DNA of 60,782 bases, filler included, from Platydemus manokwari (GCA_037951405.1; 5 parts of 5 records of this genome joined end to end with filler, not necessarily neighbours in it); one strand, 5' to 3'. Counted from the first letter of the whole stretch, positions 899 through 36,120 are shown. Numbers and translations are program-made. Notes: generated by a model not told the origin, from the sequence alone.

Positions 899-1678
899 TG
901 TTAATGATACGGAGAGAAGATGTAATTTATATAGTTAATAAGTTCATATAACTTTAATTATGTTCGTGCTATTAAAATTACGGTTAAATTAAGTTATTAG
1001 ACAAATGAATGACAAAATTGTGCAAATAAAAACTTAAACCTTACTGCGCTTGTAATGGCACTATGCAGAATTTCACTGTATATTAAAAAAAATCATCGGA
1101 TAGCTGTCGATTATTTCGAATATCTCCTCACCAAAATCCAAATGCGATGTAGTCGACAATATGGCTTCTATAAATTTCTTTCTGTAGAGTTATTCAAAGC
1201 AGCTGCGCGTATATGACAATTACCCTGTATCCGTCTTTCTCGTCGAAGATCACAAATATCGATAATTTTGGAATATGTTAGTGATGATTAGATCAGTGTG
1301 TTTTTCGGCTATTTTGTTTTCTCGCACTTTTGACTTTTTGTGGTTTTAGTTGTGTTGTGGGTGGTGTTATGATCAACGTCGTTATTTATATACCGATCAA
1401 ATCCACCCCCTCACACGGCTCTTCATGCCGATCATTTTTGCTAATTTTTTCACACGCTTCGTGTGAATAATTAATGATTGTATCTGATTCTTATTATCTA
1501 TTATAATTGTTTTTATTATTTTTCTACCTGTCTTTTTGCTATTTATTATTGTTATTTATTATATTTAACTCAATATCGACTATTGTTTATTTGCCTGTAT
1601 TTTTTATTATTTATTTAATTTCATTATTTATTAGTTATTTATTTCTCTCCGTATCTTTATCTCTACCGGATTTTAACA
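899..1678 (-). mobile_element. Probable LTR of a gypsy-like element (5' LTR; internal leader continues toward position 1)
   Basis: TGTTAA...TTAACA termini with subterminal inverted GATACGGAGAGAA; minus-strand TATA (GTATATAAATA ~1383-1393); PBS-like TGGGACGAGG ~854-863; downstream leader (555-605) homologous to 6908-6955. Confidence 0.5.
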
Positions 1679-4600
1679 TAAAAACAATAATAATAAAAGA
1701 ATCGTAAATAAAATACAACATGTAAAAATGATAATAAAACGCTAATGTTTATTACTAGAATAAAAGTAAATGATTAAAGTAAAAACCAATGTTTATTAAT
1801 TAGAGCAATTAATCAGTTATTGATCACGTTAATCAGTTATGGATCACGATTGTTGCATTGTTAGCATAATTGACTGTTATTATTTATAGGATTCATTATT
1901 TGGTTTATCGACAGCAGGTCAGTCCACACTCAGGTTCAATGTATATTTTTTAGGGTATAAGGATCTATATTATAACATATGTACAGATATTAGAAGGGTG
2001 TATATGTTTATAGTATGTTTGTAGAGTGCATGTTAGAAGAGCATTGTATGTTAGAAGGGTTAGTAGGGATTTTGAATAAATATGTTTGTAGGGAATTTGA
2101 GAGTGAGAGTGTATACCCAACAATTTCATCATACAGCAAGGGTCTATATATTATGATTATTGCTGCAGGATTGAGCTTCCATGTTGAGTTTTTGACTTAT
2201 ACAAAAATAAAATCATTTTTTATATATTGGTTTTTATTAATTTTTTGTTTTGTATTCAACAGTTTTGAACTAAATTATAAATTATTAAACAGTTTTCCTT
2301 TTTATTCTGTTTGATGAAGGCATTCATAGTTCAACAACTTTCAGTATTTAAAAAATATTGAAGACAATTAATCCTATACAATCCTATCTAATTTACTATT
2401 TGTAAAATTTTTTCGATCTGATTTATTGATGTTATCTTCAATCTTGTTCAGCAGGTTTCGAATGGTTATGGTTTTGAAATTAGAACACTTTCTGGTCCCA
2501 AACATTTTTTAATGAAAAAATACAAAGTTCGTTTTGATGATTGTTTTACATTTTATTCAATATAAAAATGTCTATTAACATAAAATACACAACCAACAGA
2601 AAAAAATTAAACTTAATACAAAAATGTGTTGCTCAATAACAATACAATTACACACCAAGTAGCTAAAAGTTTACACCCAGAAAGCAACTTGGAAATTGTA
2701 GGATTTATAACCCCTTCGTCGTATTGGGTCATAATCAATTGCAAGTATGAGCTCGATTCCATATATGCAGATGAAAACGTATATATTCTTAATATTGATT
2801 TTATAATAATTATCACTTCGAGTTGACTTATTGACTTTCGAACAATGAGTATTTTCTTTAAGTGATCTTCCAATAGCATACTGCTATATAGTTGTAACGA
2901 TTCAGAAATTTATGAACTTACAAGAACATGGAGAATGAATCATTTATCTCTTTATCTTCACAAAATAAGTTTAGTGATTTCTTTTGAAAGAGATCCCTAT
3001 TTTTATATACGGTTACTGGATAATAAAAAATGAAGTAGGAAATTAGTTGTGATATTGTTTGTGAGGATTTTAAAGTTTTTATAAATTATTTTTAATCATT
3101 TGAAAGTAAAATGATTAAAAAAATTTAAGTAATTTGTTTGAATATTTTGGTTAAATATAATTTTATGGGTTGAAATTCTTAGATTCGTTTTCTATTAGTA
3201 TTTTATGAAATAGTAGCACAAAAGAGTTTTTGAAGGGATAATTGATTTCGAGAATACCAACAAAAGTATTTATTGTATATATATAAAATTTATAAATATA
3301 AAAATGCAGATTTTTTCCAAAGTGTTTTTAAACATAATAGATAAGTTAATTACAACTTTCTAATATTCCATATAATAACAAACAAAATTTGAATAAGATT
3401 TTGATTTTAATTATTTTCGGGGCAGTTATGATCTCTTGATCCTGAACATGATTTTTAATTTGAGATATTTTACTTTCACAAAAAATCTTTCGAACAAATG
3501 AATATCAAATATGTATTTACTTTAAATAATTTTGAGTTATCTAAATCTTCTGAAGTTGATACATGAAATAAATATTATCTTAATTAAATTGACGATGATG
3601 CAAGTCAATATTCTTATCTCGATAGTAGTTTCTAGAAATGTTTTCTCATTTATTCAATATTTTCTTGTGTTACTTTCTTATTAAACATATATTCACATTT
3701 AAGTATGATTTATTTCTAGTGATTAATACTTATGATTTTCAATTTTTAGAAACAAATTGGCTAATCAATTTTGAAAATTAATGCTTTTATTTTAATTAAT
3801 TTTAGAAATTGATTATATTATCCATTTGTATATCTTAGGAAATTTTTAATAATTTTAAATTTATTTTATGATTTATGTGTTCGCATTTAATATTTAACGA
3901 ATTTTTATGTTATTCGAATTATATTATTAGTTTTATTTCATTTCTGATGGAGTAATAGGTTTTGAGTTCTGAATTTGATTTATCTATTTTTTTATTATCC
4001 TGGATTTAGGATTTGAATGCGGGATTTTGATTAAGGCCTTTTGATTCTAATTTTGGTTTTAAGAATTAAATTTTGTACCAATGATAATGTCTCATTCTTT
4101 AATAATTACTGTAATAATTGTAAAAGTTGTACACGTTTAAACAAGTTTAAATTCGATTTTAAAATTCATTAGAATTTATTAATCTAAAATATATGATAGG
4201 AAAACTTTGTCACTGGACAGTTTTGTCAATATTTAATTCCATTGACAATTTAGTGAGATTTTAGATTTTAAAATTTGAACAGAAAACTGCATATCTTTCA
4301 AATAGTTTTGATATATGTTGGAAACTGGATTATTCTGTGTTGAGATAATAATGAAGCGGTTTATATTCAATTTTGCAACAAAATCCACTTAATTGTGAGT
4401 TTGGAACAAATTGTGTCGTATTTGTAAGTTTAACACTTCTTGGCACATGAGCTGACACAGTGATGTACTGAAGGAATCTGACGGTGTCTAATAATTTATT
4501 AGTTGTGAAAGTAGATATATGGTTAGACAATTTCACCAATATCTGACTCGTCACAATGCTGAAGAGTGCGTTGGGTATATTAATTAGAATTGGACATAAT

Positions 4601-6227
4601 TAAAAATATTTGAAGACGAATATCTTTTGTTGCATAGATATGATATAAAATTGCCAAAATTAATTTGTGCGTTTCTCTTTATTTTATTGTAGCTTTATAT
4701 ACTCTTTTTGTGTTTATGTTTCTGATTGATTGTTTTCTTAAATCGTCACTTATTTTATTTTCTACCAAGTTGTGAACTGAATTAAAATGACTAGTTCTGT
4801 ATATTTTTTTAAATTCGTTATTATAAGCTGTTCTATAATAACTTCGTTACTAAGAAAAGGAAGTTCATTATTAGGTACAACAATTGACTAAGTGTCATTT
4901 AGAAAAACATGTTTTATGAGTTATAAATTCAAATATTAAATGAATAGCATTTCTTTATAATTTATGTTCAAAATATTACTTTGAGAATCCTAATTATAAT
5001 TGATTATGTGAAAAACATGACTTGTAATTTTTATGTTTCCTTTAGAAACATGTTCTTAAATGAATAACTTTTTTCCTTATCTTTAATTAATTGTATTTAA
5101 CGTGTTTTGTCTGTTTTATTTCTTTCATATCTTACAGTACTAATTAAATTACGAACCCATAATAAATATGCATAACCTTTAAAGTTAGAAATAAAATTAT
5201 AATCTACTCATCTCTTAACAGTCCTAATAAGTGAGAAATTGTCGTCATAAACGTATCTCATAAAAGATTGTCGATAATAAATCTACGTCGAAACTTGACC
5301 GGTGATGATTTTATGTTGAGAACCCTTAACCATTGAAATGCAAAACTAATCTCTAATATATTTTTGAAGAAATCTTTTTACCTCATTGAATCTCATACCA
5401 GAATTGTATATAACAATATCAAGAAAGCTTCCATTAAAGTTTGAAATCTTTCAAAGTCATTCGGTTTTTCTAAACTTTGATTGTCTAATGATATCTATCA
5501 GTACTTAGTGGAAACTAATAAATTTATCTTATAAGTGCCATTATATATATATATATCATTGCTTGTAAATTCTTTATGTACTCTGCATTCAATTTTGGTT
5601 AATGCTCTGCTACTGATCTCAGTTGAATTTCTGCGTCATTCGTAATGTTGATTATGTTTTAAATAATTGATGGTTGGTTCAATTTCTGTTTGGATTGACG
5701 ATTATTCGATCTTCGGTATGAAATATTAGAAATATTTTTCGATTTAATCTTTTACACATCGTAGTTGTACTGTTTATTCTTTCAGATTTGCTTGATTTTG
5801 AAAATTTTATAAAAATCAATATTTATTTCGCATAAACAGGATCTTCACGACGCGGTGGGAAAATCCCTCACGTTGACTTTAAAATGATATAATAAATTTC
5901 TCTTTGAGCAGGATCTTTGTTTGGACGGGAGCCCTACTGGTTGTTGCTTCTGATTGAATTTTTTGACTTTTAATTGTTTTTTGGAGTTTTTGAAGAATTT
6001 AAGCTTATCAGATGCTAAGTACGAAGATATTTGCAACTGTCTGGAGATGATTGTCCCGAAAAATATAGTTGGCAAGTCGATAGTGCTGCTGGAGCTGGAA
6101 GGTGTCGTAGTACGAAGACTTATTTGTATCATATGTGCTTGGACAGTTGAAGTAGAGTTGTTGTAGATTAATTTTTTAATATTATTATCATATGGAATAC
6201 TTACTCACTTAGTTCACTCTGTGTAGT

Positions 6228-6228
6228 A

Positions 6229-6276
<48 letters not shown>
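6228..6276. repeat. (AAT)n microsatellite
   Basis: Perfect AAT run. Confidence 0.95.
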
Positions 6277-7098
6277 TGAAAAAGATTAAAATTTTAAATA
6301 AATTAACGATTGATGTATCACCATATCCAAAATTATTTTTAATTTTGCACACATTTATATTGTGAAAATTAAACTATCGAAATTATAAAATATTAATTTT
6401 TTTATATATTTTATTCACATTATTCCTAATTTGCCAATGTATTCAGAATTTATTACGGTAATATCACCGGAGATACCACAAAGAACTCTCAAGTTAATAA
6501 CAGAATTATCCAAATCAAATATTAAAACTATCATGATGTATGAAAAATAATTTGAAAATAATTAAACCTCTTAGATTAATATAATCAATATTTTGGATTA
6601 CTTCCAACTTAAAAATGTTCTAATGATAGATGTTCTGATTATAATAATCTAAGCGTTCATTCTTTTTTATCAATATAATTTTTAATGATTTTTAAGTAAT
6701 ATTTACAAAACTACTGGAAAACTTGTTGGTACAAAAAATTACTGAAATAAAATAAACAATAACAATTATTTATTTAATAAACATTGGATTTTATGATAGG
6801 GTTGAAAGTTAAGATTCCAAAAACTTAACTTGTCAGAATAAGATCTTTAGAATTTCCGAAGATTGTATTAAACAAAATATTGGTTTATCGGTTAGATGTT
6901 AAATTTTTGGTTCGCAGTGGCTTCAGTAACCGGTATTGAGACCAAATTACTGGAAATTTATTTAGTTTCACTAAAGGTCTTGCTCACAGAAGAATAACTG
7001 ATACTGCGCCTTTTCTAAATGAGATTTAAATGTTTAGCTAAGAGTTTATCTGTTATCGAAAACGATAATAATTACGATTATAGTATCCTTTAATCAAA

Positions 7099-7719
7099 TG
7101 CGGTATGCCGAGTATCGTGACTATTGGATACCGGTTAATAAATGAGTTAATTAAACTTTGCTATTGAGTTATGAACGACACAAGGTTATTTAAATAAAAT
7201 ATTGTAGTAATAAAATTTATTTCCGAAACAAAACGAAACAATTATTAGTTATAAACAAAAAGATTGTGCAAAATGGCTTGTAATTTGACTCCGCAATTAA
7301 CCCGCGAATTCGTAAGACGGACGAAGCAGAGATTATTTGGATAGAGAAATTTAGTTATCGATAATTTTTTCGGCCAATCTCCTTTGTTACCCACTTTTAT
7401 ATAGTATTTTCTCCTTGTGGGCATACGTTGTAGTTGATTATTAATTTTGCGAAAATTTTTTCATTTTTTGGATTTTATTTAACGTTAGCATGGTGATCCA
7501 TTAAATCACCATGGTGATTAATTTAATAAATATTATTATTATGATTGTTACCACGGTGACTTATAATTTCACCATGGCGATGGGTAATGAATTTTATTAT
7601 TATATTTTTTCGGTGATGTGGGCAGTACGTGGGCGATTAATTAATTTGCATTTATTATTATATTTTGTTTATATTTTATTTTATTATATTTTTGGTTCCG
7701 AACAATAAGCATGTCCTCA
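7099..7719 (-). mobile_element. LTR (TGAGG...CCGCA) of the glycoprotein-bearing element
   Basis: Preceded on - strand by polypurine tract AAAAAGGGAAGAAGCA (7720-7735); TG..CA ends; TATATAAAA ~7395-7403; AATAAA ~7217-7222; U3 part homologous to 31650-31830. Confidence 0.65.
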
Positions 7720-7741
7720 TGCTTCTTCCCTTTTTGAGAAC

Positions 7742-8670
7742 TCATTTGAACTTCCGGATCTCTTTCTTTTTCTCTATCTTATCTGGCTGACTGTTTATGT
7801 TTATCCATAATTGTCCTGGGATAAACTCGTTGGCATTTGGATTCAGATTATAATTTTTGACGATGTCCTGACGAATATATTCTTCAGCGTCCTGCCACAG
7901 TTGTTCGAATTCTTTCTCATTCTCTTCTTTTCTCATTTGTTCGTCGACTATGGACTCTTACCATAATTGCTCAAGAAATTGCTCATTCTCCAAAGTGAGC
8001 TCATAATCGTCGCATTCCATAATTTGTTCATGATAAAACTCGTTTTCTGGCTGCTGAATTTTAATGTTATGATTAATTACCTGCACTTTCTCTTCTCGCT
8101 CATTGTCCTTAAGCATTTTGAACTCTGATATTATTTTTCCAGAATTTGGTGAGTTTATTTTCAAATAATTGCTCCTCCGCAGACTTGAGCTTCCAAGTTT
8201 GATTTCTTCTGATTATTGAATTTTCAGTTAAAAGCTCTTTATCCACCCATTCAAATACATTGGTGGCCTTGGTTATCATCTCTTGCTCTTCTTGAATCTT
8301 TTTCTTCCATCTAGATTCTTCATTGTCATCTTTTCTGTCTTTCCAGTTTGCTTCTATATTTTGATATATGCTGATTATTGCATCTATTTCATCACATCGA
8401 TTGCCATATTGTGGCATCCTCTTTCAAATGATTGCTGCATGAATTTCTTTCAGATTTTTGCTTAAGAAATGTCGGCTTTCCTTTATTTCTTCTTCTACTG
8501 TTATTGCACCTCTCAAATCTCTTTCTCCGAGTGCTTCCTCAAGATATATCGATATTGCTTTTCTTTTCATATCGTATCCGTCTAGGATTTTCCCTCTGGC
8601 GATTTCTATTACTTTCTTGCTTGCCTCCTCCGCATCCATTTTTCCTCTGATTACTGCTTCTGACGTTTAA
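7742..8670 (-). pseudogene. Fragmented unknown ORF(s) of retroelement 3' cargo (charged/coiled-coil)
   Basis: Consecutive - strand ORF fragments 8424-8639, 8109-8417, 7958-8164, 7742-7936; the last ends just before the PPT. Confidence 0.45.
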
Positions 8671-8673
8671 TTT

Positions 8674-9365
8674 TTATTCTCTTGATAGTGTTTGATTTCT
8701 GATCTTGGGCAACAAATCTGATTGAAAATATCTTCCCTTTTGAAATTTTTGAGAGCTTTCCAGACTGGGTACTCTATTGTTAAAGTCGATGGCATATTTC
8801 ACATCGATGAAAATGGTTAATTCTCTTTCCTCTTGTTGGCTCATTGGAATAATATTTCTTATAAAGGACATTTAATTTTTTGGTTGCATGAACGGCAAAA
8901 TCCTGGAGATTAAATATTTGCGCCTCGTGAAATTCTACTGGATCCAACTGGTTGGGTTCTACTAGTTCAATCATTAGAATGTACGGAATACTCTTAGATT
9001 TTATCCTTATCTGGGAGAATTCATTTTGAAAATTTGGTTTTTTCTGGGGTGTCAGATAAATTGAAATTGATGAGTGTAACTCCAATTCAATTCTCTCTTC
9101 GGGAAATTCTACGATCTCCAATTCTTTCGGGACATATTGTAATATCGGTAAGATGCCTTTGAGCTTGAACCTTCCTTGTTCTTGTTAGTGAAGTATTATC
9201 GCTGTTCTTAATTGTTACGCTGTTTTATTTATTATTATTTGGAATATAGGTCATATCTGCGAATATTCTTCTTCCGATACCAAAGGGTGCTTTTTTAACC
9301 GCCGAAAGAATGGCAGTATAAAATCTTCTTGGGAAATATTGAACTATGCTTGTTACGGGTTCCAT
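8674..9365 (-). pseudogene. Fragmented unknown ORF of retroelement cargo
   Basis: ATG at ~9365 (MEPVTSIVQYFPRRF) plus overlapping fragments 8780-9121 and 8674-8871; GC-richer than flanks. Confidence 0.4.
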
Positions 9366-9759
9366 TATTTCTACTAAGGTGTTAAAAATTATACTAAAAT
9401 AAATAAAGGGGTATCTTACTTCTACCGTTGCTGATCGAGAATTTTTGTTCAGTAATTTATGACTATTATCAACTGGGGTTTTGTTTATATGAATTTAGCG
9501 CTCGGTTTTGATTGGCTAATTTTGTATGGACAACTTTCTTAGTGGGTAGAATTTTTGAGATAATTTTCTTATTGGTCAATTTATTTTTTCCCAATATTTT
9601 TTTATTAGGAGTTTTATGAGAATTCAATTTACATTATTTCTTATTTTATTTTTACAAAGTCTAAATACCATATTCATGCTCCGAATGAAAAAAATTATTT
9701 TTATAATCATATCCTAACCATTTGACAACGCTCGTACGCCGGCAAAATTGCCGAGAGTG

Positions 9760-10200
9760 ATCCTTAAACCTATTAGCCCTTCCAACACTCTGGCCAATAA
9801 CTATCGATCCTCGTAGTAGACTATTAACTTCTTCCTTTACTAGCAGTTCATCTTTCTTTCCATGAACTGTTTGATTCATAGGGCCATGTTGAGGCGGGTT
9901 CTGTAGTCTATTATTCTTGCCCTTGGGGCTATCATGTTGGAGTATATCAATTTACCTTGGTAATTCAGGTTGTTTATCGCTATCGGGACAAGCTCATTGG
10001 CGAATTGCGGTTGTGCTAATCCCATTCTTCTTATTATCCCCTTCGGGTCATATTCATCTTTAAGAAAGACCCGTGGTTCTGTATTTGGAGACAGTCGTTG
10101 TCCAGCTCTCCAAATTTTTTCCTTCGACTGCCTAGGCACCATGCTCAGTTTGGTTGATTCTTCTTTTTTTCCTTCGTTAAATTTTAATTTTTAACTCATT
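9760..10200 (-). pseudogene. Fragmented unknown ORF of retroelement cargo
   Basis: ORF 9876-10142 with frameshifted continuation; bounded by AT-rich spacers. Confidence 0.4.
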
Positions 10201-10583
10201 TTTGAAATTTTGAAAATCCAATCTTAATTGAACCAATGAATTTTCCATTGTCATTAAATATTGACTGTTTCATATTTGTGCTATTTTGTTTTTTTTATTA
10301 ATTCTTTGTTCACCTGTATTGTCTCTATTTAGGGGCTAGCTCTGGGTTAGATTTGGGTTAGATCTCAACATATCTCCGCCCTCTTAGGTTTTTTCGTCCT
10401 GAAAAATAGGCAAAAAGATTAGATATAGACAGTTATTTACACAGTGGAAAAGGTTATAATGCTACATAAAAATGTTAACATAAATATGTCTATAGTACAA
10501 ATGGCTGTAATAAAAATGGTGTCTACAACGCCGTATAATGTCAGTAAGGTGGTGGCTACAACACCGGATAAATGTCAGTATTG

Positions 10584-11490
10584 TCATTTACTACTTCTTT
10601 CCTCATGGGAAATTCGTCGATTCTCGTTTCGGTGTAACTTCTCATCCCATTGTCCAATGAGATCCTCTTCCTTGACTTGATCTTCTCCTTCATTATGGAA
10701 ATGCCGTATATAATTTCGAGGGGTAACCTTTGGTCGGAGTATTGGTTCCCCAAGGTGATCTTGGACGATGATTGCCTGAACTACTTTATTGGATTCCTTG
10801 GCCCGTGAGTGGTTGAGGATTCCTACAAAACGGGCTGCCATAAATCTCATTCGATCAGGATGATCCGCTAGTTGTCCTCTGACGAACGTCAAATAGTGTT
10901 TGATTCTTGGTGGAATTCCTGTTTTGAATGTAATTTCTGAGGGTAAAAGTCCCTCTTCATTTTTGTCTCGACCGAATTACATGACGAGAGTGGTAGGTAT
11001 TTTGGCAACTTCTAGCATAATACGATTTATCCTTTTTTCATACATCAGAATTTCGGGGGCTGTGCTTGATTCGAGATAGATTGGTTCGTCGAGACCTGGG
11101 ATAAAGACGAGGATAGATTGGTTTGTAGTGGTTATCCATGTAGGCGGTTATTGATCTTCTTGAGAACTTCCGGGTATGATTTTGGTAAGAAGCCTTCGAA
11201 TTGGTGCTTCAACGTATTCGGCTGTGGATACTATTTCTATTTGTTGGGTATGAGTACATGAGTGTGGTACCTTCGACATCGGCAGTTTTGTCGTCGCATT
11301 TCGATCACCATTTCATGCCATTGCATTGGCCCTTATTGAAACTACTGTTTGACTGGATATAATTTGGAGGTTGGTTGGTGTTCCAAGACTAACTGGATAT
11401 TGCAAAATGGGGTCGTCCGGTTATGGTCCTTTGCTGAATGTAATGAATTAGTAATCATAGCTGAATAATACGAATAGTATGTGCAGCCAT
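10584..11490 (-). pseudogene. Decayed ~300-aa unknown ORF directly downstream of the glycoprotein
   Basis: Reading frame continues upstream of ORF 10584-10892 through a few stops (...ILVFIPGLDEPIYLESSTAPEILMYEKRINRIMLEVAKIP...). Confidence 0.45.
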
Positions 11491-11566
11491 TGATTAGATA
11501 TAATATTACGATATAGATATAATTAGTTATATTGATTTTAGTTCGACTCTTTTGATTCTGTAATTA

Positions 11567-13350
11567 TCATAAGGTGGTACTGGTAAAGTACGTTGGGTGT
11601 GGCAAGTAATTTCTATATACGGGTGGCTTATGCCGTCCTAGCAAGAAAGCGCTTATGGGAAATAAGATGGAGGACACGAATGCTGTTGCTACAACTGCGA
11701 TTATGGCTCTTGACGAATATGGGTCTGAAGGTTCGTTCGATAGTTCCCTTATTCCGAGTCCTTGCTTTCCTGATTCTCGATCGTACTCGTAGTGGTGTCC
11801 ACACGGTGTTCCATTGCTTCTCCTCGTTGTCGAGCGAGGTATGGCATATTGATCTTTTTCGGTAGAGGTTTTATTCGAAGTACTTCTCTCCATGAGTTCT
11901 TCAGGCTGATCAAATTGATTTTGTTAGTGCTTTGTAGGGTGGTACATTTTCTCTGGGGTGTGATTTCCTTTTGGATTTCTATACTGTGCGGCAGTATACA
12001 GGTTTTTACATACTGGTGTGGTTCGCGACCAATTGCGGTAGATTCGTCGGATTATCTCGGTGATTTCTCGATCACGTAGTTGAGGAAACATTAAGTCTCT
12101 TCGTGCGTCTTCGATATCTTTAAGGTTGTATAGCTCCTCCTTATTTTCAAGTGAATTAATCGGACCCAATCTGACCCGTTCTTCTATTATGCTAAGGTTT
12201 AATGTCTGCACGAGTAGTCGGGATAATCCTCGCAACGTTAATGTTACCCAAGCGTTCTTGATTTTGTATAATGGGAAGAAGAGTGGTGTGCACGTTCTTT
12301 TGTAGGTTTAGCGGTTGGCAACATGTATCTAGTCTTCCCTTGATAGATGACTTTTGGCTTGTTTGTGCATTCGTGACTTGGGCCATCATGACTTCTATCT
12401 CAGTGCATCGAAACTCATACCAAGCTTCTTCATTACTTTGGCATACTGTGTCTTTTCCATGATAAGGGGCGTGATTAAATCTGGATTCGCTATTGCAAAG
12501 TCTAACCGGTTTCGTAAGATTTCCCTGTCTCATTGGTTATCAGTGCTTCCTGGTAGACTTCGAGTAACTGAATGGAGGTCGTGGTAGAGGAAGTCAACTT
12601 TATTCATGTAGATGGCTATTTTGATGTCATTCTTGTGAAGGATTTGAGCATTTTCCAGTCTTTCCCTGCTATAGTACACTCCTTAGTAATTGGTGCTATA
12701 GAGTATATTAACACATTTCATGATTGGTGACTTGATTACTACTAGGATTGCTTCGGATGACTTGTTGGACATTAGTATCGTAGGTACTGCTCGTTCTCTG
12801 TCATTGGAGTGTTCTGTTGCTCCTCCCAACTGTTTGTTTATTACCTAGGTGCCCGTTAGTCTTTCGTAAACTAATTTGGTACCGGTTATAGCAATAAAGG
12901 GTCCACTCTTGAGTAATGTTAGTCCACAGTAGTCCGCTTCAGGAGGTCGGTAGCGAAGTACTCCTTTATTTACTGTGCATTTTCGATTTTTTAGGTGGCA
13001 TTTCGGATACTGTTTCATTAACCCGGTTTTAGCATCGAATGTTGCTTCGAAGGAATGTAGTTCTACCAGGCAATCTTCGATGGTGACTACCTAGGGTGAG
13101 AATATTTCATCCCTGAATTTGGTTCTTTCGGTGCATTTTCCAATTTGAGCTCTCTTTCCTCCTCTAATTACCGTTTTTTTGGTTATCATGTTTGGTTCGA
13201 TAGTTAGGCTTAGTTCGGGATCGATACTGAATGCATTTCTGCAATCAGTTGACGCTATGTTCAACATTGGTGGGATCAACTTGGCTTCTAGTACCGCTGT
13301 TCGGTTATGATATCCACAATAATACGCGGACGTTGGCTTGAGCTGGAACT
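11567..13350 (-). pseudogene. Decayed viral envelope glycoprotein, chuvirus-G / gB-like class III fusogen (env-like)
   Basis: Frameshifted fragments: AYYCGYHNRT; Cys-rich IEDCLVE..KCHLKNRKC; LYSTNY..NDIKIAIYMNKVDFLY; EAWYEFRCTEIEV..CCQPL; LYNLKDIEDARRDLMFPQLR; C-terminal hydrophobic AIIAVVATAFVSSILFPISAFLLG. The motif order matches chuvirus-type G as I recall it. Confidence 0.65.
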
Positions 13351-13719
13351 AAAATAGATTAATTGTCATAAAATAACAATATCGTAATCAATTGTGGTAA
13401 TTGGTAAGATGGTTAGTGGTTTTTTGGTTTTGCGATTGGCTTTTATAATTGGTTTTGAGAACTTCGGAACTGATGTGGGTTCAGCAGAATTTATTTACTG
13501 ACAATATCAAATCTAGCAAATGAGAGTTCATTGAAACTGATCTATTCAAAATTTACACTAGTTAATAATAAGTACTTTATATAATAATTAATTATAATAT
13601 AATTATTGTTGTGACAATTTTAAATTGAATTAAAATTTTAAAGATTTAATTTTGTATAAAATTTAGTTGTGTATAAATTATTTAATATAAAATCAAATTA
13701 ATTAGTTTAAATTTTATTT

Positions 13720-13780
13720 ATGCTCTCGTGACTTCTAATTTCGTCTTCGATGCGTGTTTTATAAAATAGTAGCGGCTTAC
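13720..13780 (-). repeat. Dispersed repeat; other copies at ~15981-16032 and ~16250-16303 (+)
   Basis: GTAAGCCGCTACTATTTTATAAAACACGCATCGAAGACGAA (rc) matches GTAAGTCGCTACTATATTATTAAACACGCATCGAAAACGAA at 16250. Confidence 0.7.
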
Positions 13781-14065
13781 AATTATTTTTAATTAATTAT
13801 CAAATTGAATCACGATCATCCATCATACTCGTAGCTCAATCTGTAATCCATTATGAATTGGATTTCTTCAAGTTTTCATACTCCCACGGGATTTGTCCTG
13901 ACGACAATAATGCATCAAAATTTATTACCTATCTGCTCTGTAAAATCCCATCGAGTTCTGCGTCGTTTTTTAGTCACAATATAGTAATCCTGGGTTTTGG
14001 AATTTTTGATGGATTAGTATTTAAATTAGAATATAAACGGATGGCTATCTTCTAGATTTCTTTTA

Positions 14066-14122
14066 TTCCTATTTGTTCCTGATCCGAGGAACGGATGAGG
14101 CCCACGGAAGTCCGAAATAGAA
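14066..14122 (+). ncRNA. Degenerate hammerhead-ribozyme-like motif 1
   Basis: TTCCTAT / hairpin GTTCCT-gatccg-AGGAAC / C(G)GATGA / stem II GG..CC / GAAA TAG; outer pairing ATGGCTA(14041)/TAGCCGT; core has a U->G change. Confidence 0.5.
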
Positions 14123-14176
14123 CACTAGCCGTATCATAAAACCACAATCATCATAATTGAAGGCTTCGAGAGATCT

Positions 14177-14230
14177 TCCTATATCTCTCAACCGAGATAC
14201 TGATGATGCTTAAGGAAAGCCGAAATAGGA
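14177..14230 (+). ncRNA. Hammerhead-ribozyme-like motif 2 (type III-like)
   Basis: TCCTA-TA, stem I TCTC/GAGA, CTGATGA (14200-14206), stem II GCTT-aagga-AAGC, GAAA, TAGGA complementary to TCCTA; mismatch at the base of stem II. Confidence 0.6.
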
Positions 14231-14853
14231 CTAATTTTCAACAAAAGGTAGTTTATTTGTATATTTTTATAATTTGACCACTAACAATACTATTTTTAAA
14301 ATTACTTTATTTAGTAACTTATTTTATTATTCTTTTATAGTTAAAAATATTCTCCTTATCTATTATTAAGAATGCAATTTAAAAATACTGCGACAACTCA
14401 CAGAAATGTATATAATATTTTTGTTAGTTGTTTGTATTTCAGAAAGATTTAACTCATAAAAGTAGAATAATAATAATACTTAATTTGTACCTGATTTCGA
14501 AGGTGTGGTACTATAAACCATAAAAATAATTTAAATAAATAAATGAGGATAAATGAAAATATATAATTATTAAATCAAATATTGTACAAATAATAACATC
14601 AATTTACAGATATTAATTAAAATGACAATTGAATAAACAATAATTATTCGATAACAAATAATTAGGCATTTAGTAAACTTTTAATTAGAGGGGATCAAAT
14701 CTTTATTGCTCAAATGTTGAGTGACATCAGGATTGCAATGGACGAGTTGAGAGTTGGGAAGCTGATAGACAAAATCATTATAGGGTTTTTTGAGTTTTAA
14801 AATAAATTTTGCACAATTTAAGATAATTATTTACATGAATAAGAGAATTGTTT

Positions 14854-14953
14854 NNNNNNNNNNNNNNNNNNNNNNNNNNNNNNNNNNNNNNNNNNNNTTA
14901 ATTAATTAANNNNNNNNNNNNNNNNNNNNNNNNNNNNNNNNNNNNNNNNNNNN
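14854..14953. other. Assembly gap with artificial TTAATTAATTAA spacer (also 25987-26086, 38289-38388, 50982-51081)
   Basis: Identical N44-TTAATTAATTAA-N44 blocks. Confidence 0.95.
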
Positions 14954-17199
14954 TATATATATATGTGTGTGTGTGTGCGTGCGTGTTTGAGTGTGTCGCT
15001 TGTCTGGATATATTTAAGCCCCAAAACGAAGATGCGAATGTTTATTTTTAGTCTTCGAATAACTATAATTATTATATAGATAGATAGATAATATATAATT
15101 ATAATAGGAACAATCAACATAATATTATATATATTCACATTATTAACCAAAAACTACTTATCTAATGTTGGCTGTCATAAAACTGTCAATTTCATTATGG
15201 AGAGGAGGAAATTGAATTTCACTTGATGAAAATGAAGGGCAACGTTGAGAAAATTGTGGAAAGGGGAACTGATAATTGATCAAAGTGGTTTCATTGAGTG
15301 GTGTCCTCATTAATTTTAGTTTCAATTAGATTGTCGAATAGTTAGAATGTCATCACAAATAGATAATTTCAATACAAAAAAAAATACTCCAATCAGTAAT
15401 GCATCGAATTCCCATTGTGATTGTTTGATGGTTCGCTGTGAAGTAATTAGCCTGTTATTCTATTCTGCACATTTTACGCTATTGATCAATTAATGATTTC
15501 AGTGATTTTGTTTTGACAAATCATCTTCAAATTATCCATTGTTAACTTTCTTTCATATTTTTGTCTTGTAATTAATTGATTTATTATTTTTTATTAATTG
15601 GTTAGGGTAAAATTATGAATTTTGTTTGACAACAAGTCGACATTTTATTAATGAATTCTTAAGATCTATATTTAAACAGTTATTGTGAATCTAAATGAAT
15701 GTGAGTTTGAGTCCACTGGTGAGAGAATTATTGATTGGTGGATTGGTAAGTCTATTTTATACTGACATGTAGAAAGAATTGGAATAGAAAATGATTCTAT
15801 GAACTATTATGGCTTTACATTACCAATAACAATATATTAATATAACAATATATTATTACATTATATAATTAAGGGTGAACATGTTTTGAATATTTTTATT
15901 AAAAATCAATATATAATGTGTGAATGGGTTACAAAATAAAGTTGAGTAGATTGAGTAAAATCGTTATATTAATTATTACTGTAACCCACTAATATTTTTT
16001 AAACACCCATTAAAACGAACTGAAAGTCACGACACCCTTTCTTTATCATCTTTGATTTTCTTTGTAATCCTAATTGATATATTTATCTACTCTGCATAGA
16101 AATCTATAATTCTTCTCTGCATCTTCTTTACATCTTCTTTACTTCTTCGGTATATATTCTCCATACAGTCTCAACATCTTCATTCTTCGTTTCCATAATT
16201 TTCCGTCATTGATCTTCTCAAAATCGAATCGAGATGCGTAGTCGCCATGTAAGTCGCTACTATATTATTAAACACGCATCGAAAACGAACTGAAAAAACA
16301 CGAATTAATATAATTTTATAATAAAAATTTAAATCTTCAACAATTTCATTCAATTTAAAATTCTCGCAATTACAAATCGAGTAAAAAAATCTTGTAGAAA
16401 AATTATTTTAATCGATTGGAAAAATGAGTGAATCATTATAATGAAAGTTATGATATTGGAGAATTGAAATTAATGATATAATCCGAACACAATGATAATA
16501 AAATTAAAGAAATCAGGAAAACAATTAATAAAATCACTTGGATAAAACTAATGTGATTTATAAACAGTAAAAATATTATTTCCGAAATAATAAATTTATT
16601 TATTTGATGGAAAAATTATTGATATTTAAGATATTTGAAGTTATTAATAGAAAGTTTCAATTATGGGTGTTTATTAGCATTATAATTAGCAAAACAGTAG
16701 CTGCCAATAGGAATTTACATTGTGTTCAATTAAGGAAATACATTGTAGAAGTATTTTAAAGAAAATGTATATAAAAGTAATGGTCAAGCGAGTCACTGTC
16801 ACTTTATGAGTAGCCCAACAAGAAATAAAAATAAAATATTTCTTTTGGCCTATTGTATTGAGCACAGCCAGTGGTGTTGTATTTTTAAGCACTGTAGTGG
16901 TATTTACAATAATTGTTTTGTATTGTAGAATAAGCTACTGAAGTAAAGATAATAGTTAACTGGAAGAAGATTCCGTTGCTGATAGGTTAAAACCGGTATC
17001 AAATTTTAAGTTATTCTTGATAACGAACTTTTAATATGAATTTATATCGCGGTTCTAGCCGACTTACAATAAAAATTAAATTACTAACTTAAGGTTTTGA
17101 TTTAGCAGGGGTTAAACAAAATAATAATAACCAGTTCGTCACATTCGAGATTCTTGATCAAAACTAGAAAAATTAGTTCTGAATTCAGCCTAGGTATGT

Positions 17200-18600
17200 G
17201 AAATAATTGCTTAAGGTATTATTTATAAGAGAAAAAGAAGTACAAACTTCAGGAAAGTTATCGACTATTGGAAATATAAATGGGATGTGGATACCAAGCT
17301 ATTCAGAGATTAAAAAAAATTATTATGTTCAGCGAAATTTTGAAAATACAAAAGTTTCACAACTCACAGAACATTTGATAAAAACGGAAGAGAAAATCTT
17401 GAACTTAAGGAACATTACGCGGACACGAAACTAATAACGGTAGAAGAGTAACCATAAAAAAGACGAGAACAGTCTTCATTTATCAGTGAAATAAATAGTA
17501 GAAAACTATACAATGATAGATATGGTTTTCAGGAGAAGAAAGACGAATGATAGTGACGCGGACATTGTTTCTGGTGTAGTGAAGTAGGTCATTTTAGAGA
17601 TCACTGTCCGATAAGAAACGAATGTCATATATGTGGACATGGAGGTAATGTTTCCCGAGAATGTAACATGTTTAGAGACTGCAATCAATCATCAGAAAGC
17701 CGAGAGAGATAATCAAAAAATATAAGAATGATGATAATCATCAAAAAGTACGGATAACCGAGATGATGTATTGCAAGAAAGACGAAAATGAATTAAGAAT
17801 AATACTTCAAATAATTTTACCAGTGTCGTCAATGACATGATGAGTTTATGCCGTGATATCAGAAAAATGATAGATCTTTATAATGAGTGAGAATATTCAT
17901 GAAATTGGGAACAACTATGCGAGAAGCACTCATTCTGAATCTTCCTCGAGAAAACAGAACACTAAGATCAAAGAAAACGGATCGGAAAAAGCAATGGCAT
18001 GTGGATCGCGGTTGTTAACGAGTAACAAAAAGGTCTACTGTGTGACGAGGAAAGATGTTTTTAACATTGATGGGTTTGTTATCCCTTTCAGAGAAAATCT
18101 GCATGGACAGAAATTTGTTGTACGCATAAAGAAAAAAGCCTCAACTATCTTAAAAGAAATAAAAAATCAATTAGATGAAAGGACCATGTTTGAGGTATTC
18201 CTTAACTCTTGGATTTATCGTTTTGCAAAACAAAATACCATTTTGACAGTAAGCGGATTGAAGTTCAGTTCATAGTAAAAGAATTTGCTAAATTCCGGAT
18301 TCCTGAATAGCTTAGCTCGTCTTATCAGCACTAATCAAATAGATTAACAGAGCAAGTCATTTGTACGGTTAGAGTTTTGGTAGTCTAGTCGCTAAAGAGT
18401 GAAACTAACATTAAGAAATGAATTTTCCATCAGCACTACTCGGTAATATTCTACCAAATTCTCTTCTTTTTAAGTCTCTTGTAGACAGAAGATAAATCTC
18501 AAATTTGAAAGTGACTACAAAGATGTACCGAAAGACATCGTGAGTAAAATTGGTGCCTTACAAGATGTATACAAGGGATACCGATAGAAGAGGGCATAAA
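17200..18600 (+). mobile_element. Highly decayed Ty3/gypsy pol remnant (protease-like and integrase core)
   Basis: DSDADIVS (D-S-G-A-D-like); WIYRFAKQNTILTVSGLKFSS and SSYQH*SNRLTEQVICTV resemble the rve core. Confidence 0.55.
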
Positions 18601-31628: not shown

Positions 31629-32354
31629 TGTCAGCCTCAACGTACTGTAGAGAACCAAAATATAAATAAATATAAAAATGTAGTTGTCCACGTACTCACA
31701 CGTCACCGAAAAATACAATAATAATAAAAATTATAATAAAATTCATGATTCATCAACTTGGTGAATTAATACGTCACCATAGTAACAATAATGGTAATAA
31801 TATTTAAAATACACATCACCATGGTGAGTTGCTACAAAATTGTTCTTCATTGATTCGCCGAAATTGTGATTCGCTACGGGAATTATTCATCCGATTCAAC
31901 GAAAAAACTGTTCATCAGATTCAACGTCTCGTGCTTCGAATCAATCGTTAAAACTCTCAACTATATTCGTTATTTGGATTCAACGTATCGTTCTACAGGC
32001 GTTTCGGATACATTCAAATCCTCAATAAATTTGATCACTCGCATCATCGGATAAGCTTGTTACTCAATCCTGAAATGCAATCGGTAATTATTTCAATCAA
32101 TTATATGAGTATCGTACAAAGTCGTAAGAATTTGTACTGATATTCATTCATAAAATTATATAGCTATACAAAGGCGAAAGCATTCAGTGCGCTGTAAAGC
32201 CACAAGGATTTGCAGACGCCACCTTAATTAATAAGCTAAAATCACATCTTCTTTAGTTTATCGTCCGAAGTAAGGCGGTAATTAGTTCCTTACGTCTATT
32301 TGTTTTAAACTCTTCAGGATACAACACTGCTCTGTGTCAAATTGTTGCATGACA
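31629..32354 (+). mobile_element. Probable 5' LTR (TGTCA...TGACA) of the gag-bearing element
   Basis: Inverted TGTCA/TGACA ends; 31650-31830 homologous to rc of 7490-7700, including CCACGTACT..TCACCGAAAAA and TCACCATGGTGA. Confidence 0.55.
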
Positions 32355-32798
32355 CATTTGTTAATTTTTATTATAATAAACGTAGTATTAAGATTTTGTT
32401 ATCATTCATATCATTATTATATTTAACAGTACTTGAATAATTACACGCAACGTATTTATTGATTAAAGTCGGATTATTGGTGGAATCATCCGCTTCTAAT
32501 CATTACTTAATAGTGCACAGATAATTCATCGAGTTCTGTTAGTTGAATTATCTCTTAGAATCACTCACTAGATACTACTTAGCACAGGCTAGTAGGATTT
32601 CATCAAATTTGATGAGCCCGACGTGATCATAATCATTCGGGTTAGAACATAGAGCTTGCTGAAGCTATCATCAATTAGGTATCACAAGGCTTTTTAAGCT
32701 TTACACATTAATTAATTGCCTTAGGGCTACAATATAACTATCACAATATAACTATAATCACTAATAACTATAACAATATAACTATCACTCATTCTCAA

Positions 32799-33920
32799 AT
32801 GACGGTAAAGATAAGGATTCCGAACAAAACTTCACTCCAGATAATTCATCTACTAGGCACAAACGTTATCCTCGGAAAAAGAGACCAGTCATGATTAGTT
32901 ACACAGAAAGAATAAACCAATGCGACCATAACGCAAGGCAATCATCGGATACCAGATGGAGGCCAGCACTTCAAGAACAGTCCTATTATCTCCATCCCAA
33001 TCAAATCATACAAGGGGGAGCCAGGGCTCTTCCAACAATTCATGGCTGATTATTACCAGTTATCTGACGCAAACGAAGTCAGCCCAAATATTATGATCAA
33101 GCGGTTACCGATATACTTATCAGGCATGGCTCGCAAAAAATCGTCACGCTGAAACCTTAGGCCACCTGGACCGAATTCAGGCAAGCACTGGCCAAACAAA
33201 TCTTACCAGCGGACACAGGACACCTGTTCCGACAACGATTTAACAGGCGCAAGCAAAACACGGACGAGCATGTCAGCGAATTTGCTCATCAATTACTTCT
33301 CCTCGCTGAACGGGCGTTCGGAGAACGATCACGATGGCCCACGGATACAAAATTAAATGTAAAGGATCACTTATGGGAAGGATTCCTTCCCCACATCAGA
33401 GATGCACTCAGTTTACACATGGGCGACGATTTCGATGATCTCTTCCAAAAATCCAGATTGGTTGAAATGAGTTTAGGAGATGGGGAACTCATGTGCTCAT
33501 CATATGAAAAACTACGAGCCACGGGCACTCAACATAAGGATAATTAACCAGAGAAAAATAAACCGGCTGATCCAAAAAAGGGATCCAGTCAGAACAGGAT
33601 GTGCCAAATCTGCCAGAGACAAAATCACGGAACTCGGGATTGCAGAGCAACTACAAACGTTAATGACGAGAAATTAAAGTGCCAAAAATGTGGGTTGGAC
33701 AATCACATAACAAGTGACTGCACCAGCACAGGGCTGAAGTGCGAACATTGCGGTAGAACCGGACACGCCTAATCCATATGCAGAACAAAGAATAACCCAC
33801 CGAAGAGGGACGAGGTTAACCAACAAGGAAAAATTAAATGCTATCGATGTAACTAGTTCGGACACGTGAGCCGAAGCTGCCCACAAAAAGAATCAGAAAA
33901 GTCGACTTCAGTTTTAGTAG
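32799..33920 (+). pseudogene. gag: Ty3/gypsy-type gag (capsid plus 4-5 CCHC zinc knuckles), frameshifted
   Basis: IKRLPIYLSGMA, WTEFRQAL, RRKQNTDEHVSEFAHQL (capsid Q..E...F motif); knuckles CQICQRQNHGTRDC, CQKCGLDNHITSDC, CEHCGRTGHA*SIC, CYRCN*FGHVSRSC. Confidence 0.85.
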
Positions 33921-34075
33921 CACGGAAAACACTCCTCAACCGAACTTAAATCGGTTACAGCAACTTGAATTAGAATTTTTAGAGGAAGAAAGTCGAGTCT
34001 ATAGACTCCCGTAAAGGGGAGGCCCTCGGCATAAACCCGAAACCGAAAAAGCAGAAAGACACACGTAAATACATC

Positions 34076-36120
34076 ATGGACAAGAAAACGAACAGAGCCG
34101 AGAAACAAAGGGAAAAGAAAACACAGTTTTCCAAGGCATCCTCACCAACTGATATACTTTCAACGACATACTCCGAGTATGACCACCCATTCGCACCCAC
34201 ATTCGAAGACGCATTAGCATCTACATTTGAAGACGAAGAACTCGAAGACCTGTCCTGGGAAGATCACGACGTGTTACAGGACGTAATCGAGAAACTATTC
34301 ACATGCCAGACGGAAACAGCCTCAGTTACGTCAACGGGAGTAAGGCATTATACTCACGTAGAAAATAGAACAAGCTCATATACGCCAGCTGGATTAGACC
34401 AGTACATTTATCAACATAATAAAAAAAGAAGTTGATCCGCATCGGGCAGACCCACGCAGAGACGGGGAGCCAACTGCACCAGACGACACACCAATAGAAA
34501 AAGAAACCACAATGGGAATCGATCCTGAACCGGATGAGGCATATAGTAAAGAAACAACGGCCGGGCCATACATTAAAACAAATCACGCTGAAATAAATCC
34601 ACAAAACCCTACTAATGAGGAAAAAGAGGGAACAGTCGGAATCGAACTTGAATACAATGAACCACAGGGCAACGACTGGCTACTGTAGCCAAACAGAGAG
34701 TCCGCAGAGTAAATGGGTATCCCTAACATAGAATTAATAGCTATGATTAATGAGGAAAACGACACCGTAGGGGACACAAGTCAAACAGAAAGGGAAGCTG
34801 TATACGCTATTGACACAGAAAATTGTAGAGTCATACCAGAACTAACACAAGCCGAGAGAAATGAATTGGAAGCACTACTGGCCACTCTTATCGAAAAATT
34901 TAATAAGACACCCATAGAAGCCGAAAAAGTAAAGGATATATTATCAAGACACGTTTACGACAACGTACCTGAAGAATTGCTAAGGATTATTGCCCCAATC
35001 TTGGTAAAACAGCTCACAACTCTCACTATTTATAGAATCGAATTACAACTATTGCTACAACGAAACGGATTAATATTACGCAATGGGGCACAGCGCAAGA
35101 AGTCGATGTGTTACTGTAAAGCGAACACCAAGGAAAAATTAGCAAACAGGTGACGACATTTATGAAAACGAATAAGATACGTAAATAATCAAAAAAGAGT
35201 TCTACATTAAGGAACCATTCGTACTCACCGTGTGGGATTACCCCATTGACGACGATGAGTATCTTACCGATGTCGGATACTTACCGGACTTTGTAACGGT
35301 CATCAAAATAATCGAAATACCAGCATATGCAAATCAGGGACAGCGAAGTAGTCTTACGTTACGGGAGCCACCAGTCACAGCACGGCAAGCCAATGCTGGG
35401 GAATTTCCCGTTGATTTAGACGAAGAGCCACCGAATGAGGCCCAATTGAACACACCCGATGTTACAATCGAGAACATCGTTGAGGATGACCTCGACCTAT
35501 TGCTCAGAATAGATCCGGATAATGACCTATTCGCAGAGCCAGTCAATGCTCAAGTACAGACTAGCGCCATGCAGGAGATGCCCGGAGAAATGCCACCATC
35601 ACCGGTGGAGGATCGTCAACCAAAGAAAAAGAGGGGCCGACCACCCAAGAATCCATTGGTAAACCCAGTGGTAAACGCGGCACAGCCCATTAGCACCAGT
35701 AATCAAGCAAACATAGTAATTAACACGAGGGCAGCAAATCTAATTAGGGAACCTCAAACGAGTTTTAGACAAAACGAGGCAAGCGGAACGAGACAACCCA
35801 CCGCACATCGGAATCAGCAATCATCCCAAGTACAGTTATTAAAACATTTAGCAAGACAAATCGAGAACACACCTCCACCCGAAATTCGCAAATATCTGCT
35901 CACCTTGGCTAAGGGAGTGGAACCACGGAACATTCGGTTACCAGAAGACGACCTGACAGGATATGAAACAATAGTAGAAGAAATAAAAGAGTATTCGAGA
36001 CGCATACGCCGCATCTTGTGTAACATGGATATAGAAGATCCTCACAAATCAATCCAAGAGTTACTTTGCAGACGGAAATACAGAAACACGAGCCAGATTA
36101 GTCCTGACCTGTCTAGTTAA
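34076..36120 (+). pseudogene. Fragmented unknown retroelement ORF downstream of gag, with AT-hook/NLS motif
   Basis: ORFs 34076-34435, 34713-35153, 35230-36120 (296 aa) with PKKKRGRPPK; no protease, RT or integrase motifs seen. Confidence 0.55.

Follow-up and report, generated by a model that had tools for sequence, protein, structure and literature searches.

A 60,782-nt window of DNA, made up of scaffold pieces joined with filler, was analyzed. At the locus described here, the minus strand carries a decayed, 5'-truncated envelope glycoprotein gene (env), followed by three decayed exonuclease paralogues, a polypurine tract (PPT) and an LTR-like repeat (Table 1). The gB-type env is an already known kind of gene, while the exonuclease cargo is the new part of this locus. 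The host is likely a planarian: an innexin gene encodes a protein 71% identical to Dugesia japonica innexin7, in keeping with the non-arthropod host proposed in a previous sequence-only reading of this DNA.

Table 1. Features of the env locus and of a related element in the same window
Feature	Position	Strand	Basis or remark
Unrelated repeat of very high copy, on the 5' side of the truncated env	13570..13860		Summed contig depth above 10000
gB/chuvirus-type env gene, decayed, 5'-truncated	11567..13348	-	PF24664 match, TM, Cys, planarian-env likeness
Exonuclease paralogue 1, N-terminal domain and first half of DEDDh domain	10584..11490	-	Own profile, phmmer; start codon inferred
Splice-acceptor-like AG (10399), purine-rich tract, TGT	10368..10399	-	Sequence, acceptor filter
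Partial exonuclease paralogue 2, frameshifted once near 9890	9661..10190	-	Own family profile
Exonuclease paralogue 3, ~540 codons in four frames, acidic tail	7742..9365	-	Own profile, phmmer
PAM2 (PABP MLLE-binding) motif near end of paralogue 3	7817..7846	-	Pfam PAM2
Polypurine tract	7720..7735	-	Purine filter; junction recurs in diverged contig
LTR-like repeat, 5' edge 7704, 3' edge ~6990-6920	6920..7704	-	Related copy, contig matches
Related element: LTR, Trp-PBS-like site, four-knuckle gag, long coding tail	31653..36120	+	Other scaffold piece, not physically linked

Envelope glycoprotein gene

The main frame of env (13351-11561, minus-strand translation) spans 597 codons and includes 11 cysteines, five internal stops outside an off-frame stretch and at least two frameshifts. 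By hydropathy (mean 2.24 over 19 residues at 11704) the protein has a C-terminal transmembrane anchor, and a double stop (11569/11566) closes the frame ahead of an AT-rich spacer. The sequence-only reading had described just such an ORF (about 600 codons, decayed, Cys-rich and TM-anchored), and minus-strand translation recovered all three peptides that it quoted (at 12631, 12428 and 12133). As the middle peptide sits in another frame, there are frameshifts on both sides of it.

Comparison with Pfam PF24664 (Monjiviricetes_fusion) gave a score of 44.8 bits (cut-off 27, E-value: 5.8e-12), with env pieces covering positions 83-210 and 426-508 of the 653-position profile. Positions 1-82 were unmatched, and the truncated gene has neither a signal peptide nor an intact ORF. 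Based on this profile homology, env is classified as a class III gB/chuvirus-type glycoprotein gene, as had been claimed. No match to env was identified in word-index protein searches, a PDB sequence search or scans of viral and metagenome contigs. A single-sequence AlphaFold model of env was discarded (pLDDT 29.7), as was a second model (pLDDT 33.8).

The further proposal of that reading, RNA-virus capture of env, was not supported. Of the relatives seen, the nearest is the env of a planarian retroelement, and genes of this kind are ancient according to the argument of Chary and Hayashi (PMC13524379). When env was aligned by eye with that of Smed_errantivirus_4, four ungapped blocks were identical at 19/35, 30/92, 7/24 and 18/43 positions (74/194, ~38%), which is inside the 32-64% span of the pairwise rows listed for the C1a group. 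All seven cysteines in the overlap (by eye, domain I-II) are shared and colinear; the first Cys of the Smed_errantivirus_4 row falls at the lost edge of env and has no counterpart.

Exonuclease cargo

Downstream of env, the minus strand of 7740-11560 contains eight stop-free runs of at least 80 codons, compared to a mean of 0.7 in shuffled sequences (none of 500 shuffles reached eight); such runs are at chance level on the plus strand. The proposal of about four further ORFs separated by AT-rich spacers was thus right as to coding but not as to number, as there are three genes: the last two ORF blocks (~9365-8655 and 8639-7742) have no AT-rich spacer between them and are one frameshifted gene. 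Likewise, the "several accessory genes" of that reading exist, but as a single gene family in three copies.

A single phmmer search with a cargo frame retrieved 22 unnamed, mutually homologous proteins. Pfam RNase_T matches 10 of these above its cut-off and four more below it, and in a search of PDB the family profile matched ISG20L2 (E-value: 3.6e-22), ISG20 (E-value: 9e-11) and SDN1 (E-value: 5e-6). Family members consist of an N-terminal domain, an ISG20/REX4-like nuclease domain and an acidic tail. The full catalytic set (all five residues, E at motif II counted) is present in 16 of the 22 homologues, with E in the motif II column in 12 of these 16. The catalytic His is found in 17 of 22, and the family does not show the motif III Tyr of RNase D-like DEDDy enzymes. 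By profile homology, this is a DEDDh, ISG20/REX4-like family, and the cargo consists of three tandem paralogues of it rather than four unrelated ORFs.

Matches of our own family profile in the window were confined to the three cargo blocks (best score in a reversed-sequence control: 2.3 bits). Paralogue 1, with three stops in 265 codons, scored 39.3 bits at 11168-10638 (model 73-246). Among the 22 proteins its best matches were P0014, P0024 and P0023 (E-values: 9e-15 to 3e-12), which places it closest to a catalytically degenerate subfamily; these nearest relatives also lack most of the catalytic residues. Paralogue 2 has two matches that are colinear across two frames, one of 21.9 bits at 10001-9891 (model 195-231) and one of 7.6 bits at 9888-9787 (model 232-265). 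Its similarity to PDB ISG20L2 has an E-value of 0.11, and its second frame alone had no relevant PDB match. Paralogue 3 is preceded by an acceptor-like AG (9394) ahead of its ATG, and its region accounts for 19 of the 22 phmmer matches. It scored 12.5 bits at 8895-8773 (model 159-197) and 92.9 bits at 8756-8019 (model 204-398), while its N-terminal pieces match the profile weakly (4.0 and 3.6 bits).

None of the three copies in the window is intact, and most of the catalytic residues are missing from each. With ISG20 residues as the reference for the D-E-D-H-D set, paralogue 1 lacks the acidic pair at motif I and ends before motifs II-III, paralogue 2 lacks the motif II acid and paralogue 3 keeps only the first Asp. 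No introns interrupt the copies, as far as the profile matches show. As they barely align with each other directly (best E-value: 0.045), the triplication is not recent. The PAM2 motif of paralogue 3 scored 20.8 bits (Pfam cut-off 20) and aligns to a Paip2 peptide (E-value: 0.04); it was the sole match in six frames, there were none in 300 shuffles and the pattern occurs in none of the 22 homologues.

The cargo was not recognized directly by Pfam, PHROGs or NCBIfam. Scans of viral and metagenome contigs returned nothing for the paralogue 1 query and no match to the nuclease motifs, P0006 or P0011, and the 16 loci from a prokaryote scan included no nuclease (15 unrelated Bacteroidales proteins and one sequence with stops). 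Interpretations of the cargo as integrase GPY/F, chromodomain, dUTPase or MYND were dropped, as the profile matches explain it. An Atlas search with paralogue 1 gave weak HEAT-like leads only. Among the literature listings searched and the papers cited here, none was found that deals with DEDDh or PAM2 cargo in planarian or env-bearing LTR elements; an annotation may exist in Repbase or in published figures.

Termini, flanks and probable unity of the element

Paralogue 3 stops 7 nt before the PPT. This tract, already noted in the sequence-only reading, is the sole one in 6600-13600 (minus strand) to pass the purine filter. A diverged contig (7704-8232, 70 differences) carries the end of paralogue 3 through the PPT. 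Following a 15-nt gap, LTR homology begins with TGT at 7704, and this sequence is 72% identical over 183 nt to a related copy at 31653-31830 (E-value: 3e-20); similarity between the 3' halves of the two copies was not above that of shuffled sequences. The TG..CA LTR of the sequence-only reading is retained as an LTR-like repeat, but starting at 7704 rather than 7719, and its proposed end at 7099 is unsupported: other contigs match 6968-6995 and 6918-6957. Many other contigs also match 7279-7567. The repeat may include PBS/leader-like sequence. An LTR motif had no match in the viral and metagenome contig scans.

The proposed LTR-element setting agrees with this PPT and with the related element on another scaffold piece. 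The latter has a Trp-PBS-like site at 32610 (16/18 relative to the tRNA-Trp 3' complement), the only such site in the window, and a gag gene encoding four CCHC knuckles (zf-CCHC, E-value: 2e-7; Retrotrans_gag, E-value: 0.012). At the env locus itself, no gag, pol, LTR pair or TSD was found on this scaffold piece. Pfam gave no gag or pol match upstream of env in six frames of 13352-14853, where the high-copy repeat and an N gap at 14854 truncate the locus, and PR, RT, RH and IN were absent from six frames of 7700-11560, a region accounted for by the exonuclease genes. Scans for Rfam families and tRNAs gave no matches.

The locus was compared with Logan contigs from X1, the one run listed in a run search and possibly the source sample, contig depth being taken as a hint and not as copy number. 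Contig pieces covering 9265-10218, 10202-12602 and 12575-13648 showed no differences to the locus. Each block recurs in diverged contigs of this run, and contigs of high depth touch env, paralogue 1 and paralogue 2. Among the contigs listed (in one comparison, the best 8 of 326 pieces), none from another locus bridges env and paralogue 1, paralogues 1 and 2 or paralogues 2 and 3. Env and all of the cargo blocks share one strand, one A-rich bias and a similar degree of decay. GC content falls from 0.42 in env and paralogue 1 to 0.35 in paralogue 3 (P = 2e-6), with paralogue 2 resembling the former (P = 0.34). It is likely that all of these parts belong to one element, of which the env-bearing copy here is dead.

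A second purine tract and TGT (10385-10368), overlooked in the sequence-only reading, lies between paralogues 1 and 2 and is followed by AATAAA at 10299. The search pattern derives from this very site, and its shuffle control is therefore not independent. The site is either an internal PPT-like site or the 3' end of a separate element. The spacers show no significant similarity to one another, and the idea of a shared internal promoter was therefore dropped.

Interpretation and comparison with known systems

We consider it somewhat better than an even chance that the locus is the dead 3' half of one Ty3/gypsy-type provirus comprising env, three exonuclease paralogues, PPT and LTR-like repeat. 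The strongest competitor, although rather unlikely, is a composite of two related elements, in which env, paralogue 1, the 10385 tract and a short LTR remnant adjoin paralogues 2 and 3 with the 7735 PPT and LTR-like repeat. The tract with its downstream AATAAA, the GC step between blocks and the lack of a bridging contig among those listed would fit such a junction, as would the continuation of the LTR-like repeat into PBS/leader-like shared sequence, which is found in tandem or nested insertions. However, the same unusual gene family is on the same strand in both halves, the GC content of paralogue 2 matches that of env and paralogue 1, the 7704 LTR has no similar sequence in the stretch following 10371 and the 10385 site doubles as a splice-acceptor motif. 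A contig of depth 14.7 is listed on each side of the tract, although equal depth is weak evidence for a single contig.

An improbable alternative is that the array is a host gene cluster, or belongs to another mobile element or virus, and adjoins the env fragment and LTR by chance. The homologues are unnamed, REX4/ISG20-like nucleases are ordinary cellular genes and PAM2 is a host motif; against this, the intronless copies resemble env in decay and in strand bias, and the junction between paralogue 3 and the PPT, 7 nt further on, recurs in a diverged contig. We infer that the exonuclease family is element-borne. That env is a solo endogenized chuvirus-like glycoprotein gene unrelated to the flanking LTR element is most improbable, since, although its Pfam family is named for the Monjiviricetes and mosquitoes have solo chuvirus glycoproteins (according to the available part of PMC7642597), it is colinear with planarian gypsy env, at the identity and with the cysteines given above, and related contigs are of high depth.

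Under the single-provirus reading, env would let particles of the intact lineage pass between cells, and subgenomic RNAs would serve to express the nuclease genes, of which paralogues 2 and 3 are preceded by acceptor-like AGs. The most likely role of the nucleases, put forward tentatively, at a little under even chances, would be anti-silencing through action on RNA 3' ends: active members would trim host small RNAs or decay intermediates, degenerate members would bind RNA as decoys and paralogue 3 would be tethered to PABP through PAM2. Trimming of the element's own replication intermediates is a possible but more doubtful function. The lack of pol might be explained by its former position upstream (gag-pol-env order) or by its deletion from a GAG-ENV-POL parent. 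More speculative is the wider proposal of an enveloped planarian retrovirus lineage with a 3'-side env and an array of ISG20-like nucleases and pseudo-nucleases that expanded long ago, has one member carrying a PABP-binding motif and serves as a dedicated counter-defence module against piRNA or RNA-decay silencing.

Flatworm gB-type gypsy elements are known, yet whatever else they carry besides gag, env and pol has received little attention. According to the available part of PMC8532177, PIWI silencing acts on planarian Gypsy/Burro elements; if the wider proposal is true, a nuclease array with active and degenerate branches would supply the first concrete candidates for the persistence of these very abundant elements under PIWI control in planarian cells, as well as an accessory set like that of complex retroviruses but drawn from one undescribed enzyme family. 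It would also add to the rotifer DEDDy precedent a second class of nuclease that was acquired independently. These predictions are testable using S. mediterranea relatives, for which there are published coordinates, RNAi and small-RNA data, and the 16 catalytically complete homologues can be assayed.

The gB-type enveloped gypsy element of flatworms is a published concept. Smed_errantivirus_1-6 (C1a, HSV/gB-type Ty3/gypsy; PMC13524379) come from the same host group and are colinear with this env over domain I-II, Smed_errantivirus_4 being nearest by eye. In those elements the order is GAG-ENV-POL and pol lies no more than 2 kb from env, whereas here pol is absent and env is followed by a 3.8-kb run of exonuclease genes and a PPT. 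A term search of the PMC13524379 main text found no mention of accessory or additional ORFs; for all six Smed elements, even one with 215 copies, no LTR pair was called within 3 kb, which would leave room for unannotated cargo. The giant planarian gypsy elements Burro/GYPSM1, as described in the available portion of PMC6431247, are similar in env homology, a multi-knuckle gag and accessory ORFs. The Burro env sits between gag and protease in the same reading frame, while the env described here closes with a double stop, and the extras given there (BIR, BCL2, MATH, ankyrin, dUTPase and others) include no DEDD nuclease. Anakin, a mosquito BEL/Pao element, likewise has a glycoprotein of this broad class (chuvirus) in an LTR element, but it is from an arthropod and the accessible text of PMC7642597 mentions no nuclease cargo; the present env matches the planarian gypsy group. 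Troyka was rejected as a relative, having CG ends and no env in the part of PMC12440569 available.

With respect to the cargo, ISG20L2, ISG20 and SDN1 (PDB 7yw5, 1wlj and 5z9x) have the same nuclease domain but are cellular enzymes, and the N-terminal domain of the family has no counterpart in them, as the profile match starts at position 182. A precedent for exonuclease cargo is provided by ORF3 of Juno and Vesta from bdelloid rotifers (PMC5408684), in which a 3'-5' DEDD-superfamily nuclease is carried at the 3' side of an LTR element. It is a DEED variant, a feature shared with the 12 complete homologues that have E in the motif II column. That ORF3 is single, RNase D-like DEDDy and replaces env; in contrast, the nucleases of this locus are of the DEDDh type, have an extra N-terminal domain and are present as three paralogues beside env.

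A decayed glycoprotein gene

The sequence-only reading had assigned the product of env, the 5'-truncated gene at the start of this minus-strand locus, to the gB/chuvirus-type glycoproteins, and this assignment held. Read in a single frame with X at stops, 13351-11561 matched Pfam Monjiviricetes_fusion at 44.8 bits (cut-off 27), its pieces aligning to profile positions 83-210 and 426-508, and the three peptides quoted earlier were all found in the env region, one of them in a different frame. The reading contains five internal stops, a double stop (11569/11566) and a TM-like 19-mer at 11704, while the 5' part of the gene is absent. The very high-copy, possibly MITE-like short repeat near the truncated gene has a diverged copy in opposite orientation on a different piece (16248-16408).

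In Chary and Hayashi (PMC13524379), gB-type env genes are reported in Ty3/gypsy elements across animals, with the order GAG-ENV-POL in flatworms. The domain I-II row for Smed_errantivirus_4 in the same paper is colinear with the window env: 74 of 194 residues and 7 of 7 cysteines are identical, counted by eye over four ungapped blocks and not from a computed alignment. Based on the profile match, the decay and this colinearity, the window env is, judged by its sequence, a dead member of this already published group.

Exonuclease paralogues 3' of env

The minus strand of 7740-11560 carries coding signal beyond chance, to which profile libraries gave no direct name; the earliest clue to its identity was a weak PDB match to ISG20L2 (E 0.11). 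When one frame of 11381-8112 was used as the query for full phmmer, 22 proteins came back (E up to 0.001), 19 aligning to the last block of this cargo and three to the first; these two sets are mutually homologous. The Pfam RNase_T cut-off was passed by 10 of the 22, and four more matched below it. A profile of all 22 matched ISG20L2 in the PDB (E 3.6e-22), and also ISG20 and SDN1, from position 182 on. When this profile was run on six frames of the whole window (best reversed control 2.3 bits), matches were confined to three cargo blocks, copies 1-3. Coding sequence thus does follow env as predicted, but the "about four further ORFs" are three paralogues of a nuclease that we take to be REX4-like.

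Members of the family (P0005-P0026) have an N-terminal domain of ~180 aa without a Pfam match, a DEDDh domain and a variable acidic tail; the majority are DEED, and there is a catalytically degenerate branch. Specifically, 16 of 22 have the complete catalytic set (columns set on P0006), 12 of these with E at motif II, and the remaining six comprise two truncated and four degenerate proteins. In the window copies most of the catalytic residues are missing, and these copies can scarcely be aligned with one another (best E 0.045). As the three best matches of copy 1 are all catalytically degenerate, an old pseudo-nuclease branch, rather than decay alone, is suggested for this copy. Copy 3 ends in a PAM2 motif, a motif that binds MLLE; a motif search found PAM2 in none of the 22 homologues. 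None of the 10 homologues looked up (sources Logan, ENA and JGI) had an informative protein name, and this unnamed family deserves description in its own right.

Features of the window
Feature	Position	Strand	Details
Short blocks common to dozens of other contigs	6918-6995	-	just past LTR-like repeat; TGG-starting site at 6944
Copy 3 profile match	8895-8019	-	12.5 + 92.9 bits
Copy 2 profile match	10001-9787	-	21.9 + 7.6 bits, consecutive model positions across two frames
Copy 1 profile match	11168-10638	-	39.3 bits
Very high-copy repeat	about 13570-13860		near truncated env
Gypsy-like remnant	17500-18272	+	zinc-knuckle-like peptides by eye; RT_RNaseH 17874-18272; no link to env/exonuclease locus
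Related LTR element, 5' end	31653-36120	+	LTR ~0.95 kb; Trp-PBS-like site; gag with four CCHC knuckles
Innexin exon (host gene)	38391-38804	-	71% identity to Dugesia japonica innexin7
Decayed non-LTR retroelement	42698-44769	-	RVT_1 above cut-off at 44075-44500; following frames possibly a restriction-enzyme-like endonuclease
Tandem repeat	48130-49200		unit ~290-298 nt, at least 3 units, 76-87% alike
FHA-domain gene (host gene)	49280-50114	-	

Extent and probable unity of the element

The PPT (7735-7720) begins 7 nt past the copy 3 stop, and the junction between them recurs in a diverged contig. The repeat 3' of the PPT is 72% like 31653-31830, on another piece. The proposed PPT and LTR are borne out as a PPT and an LTR-like repeat, with the LTR start placed at 7704 by the related copy, but an element end at 7099 is unsupported because other contigs match on to about 6920. 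Sequence behind the repeat may be PBS/leader-like; if the short blocks there, which could be a PBS/leader, are one, the LTR would be common to tandem elements. No gag was seen by eye after them. Six-frame Pfam scans of 7700-11560 and 13352-14853 gave no match to protease, RT, RNase H or integrase, although Pfam did pick up remnants of RNase H and RT in other parts of the window.

Of the five pieces that make up the window, the env/cargo locus is on the first (1-14853), and the related LTR element lies on a separate one. Its Trp-PBS-like site matches the tRNA-Trp complement (motif from 10.1101/400127) at 16 of 18 positions. Beyond the gag knuckles, ~700 codons without a Pfam match end in a stop, and neither env nor pol was found behind it up to 38288. 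The pieces should not be treated as contiguous, with 100-nt N linkers between them (14854-14953, 25987-26086, 38289-38388 and 50982-51081) that are identical and have an all-frame stop core. Three overlapping contigs from a public run, which may be the source sample, reproduce 9265-13648 with 0 differences. Judged by the innexin and its identity to the Dugesia japonica protein, the host is likely a triclad planarian.

We favor the reading that env, copies 1-3, the PPT and the LTR-like repeat belong to one element, for three reasons. First, the nuclease family, strand and bias are the same on either side of an internal purine tract with TGT (10385-10368, between copies 1 and 2). Second, the GC of copy 2 resembles that of env. 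Third, high-depth contigs match env, copy 1 and copy 2 among the matches listed. A composite of two nuclease-carrying relatives is the less likely reading; the presence of the tract, the fall in GC in copy 3 and the lack of a bridging contig among the matches listed point that way. Acceptor-like AGs, one at 10399 with the internal tract and one at 9394 ahead of copy 3, are by themselves not above chance, since the acceptor filter passed 3 minus-strand and 8 plus-strand sites in 6600-13600.

Possible function and comparison with known elements

In the intact element, a class III fusogen would have permitted spread between cells, and the nucleases would most likely have acted on RNA 3' ends, weakening silencing. 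This anti-silencing role is proposed because, among the structural relatives found with the homologue profile, one nuclease degrades small RNAs and one RNase is antiviral (for the ISG20 active site, see PMC9157404), and because planarian Gypsy/Burro elements are PIWI targets (PMC8532177). The main alternative is that the nucleases trim the element's own replication intermediates.

The gB-type env group was already known; as far as the literature was searched, the new part is the DEDDh array next to env, no such array having turned up in topic searches of the literature. In PMC6431247, Burro env lies in frame between gag and protease, whereas the window env is not so placed. LTR elements of bdelloid rotifers carry a single DEDDy nuclease where env would be (PMC5408684); there one nuclease replaces env, while here a DEDDh array stands beside it.
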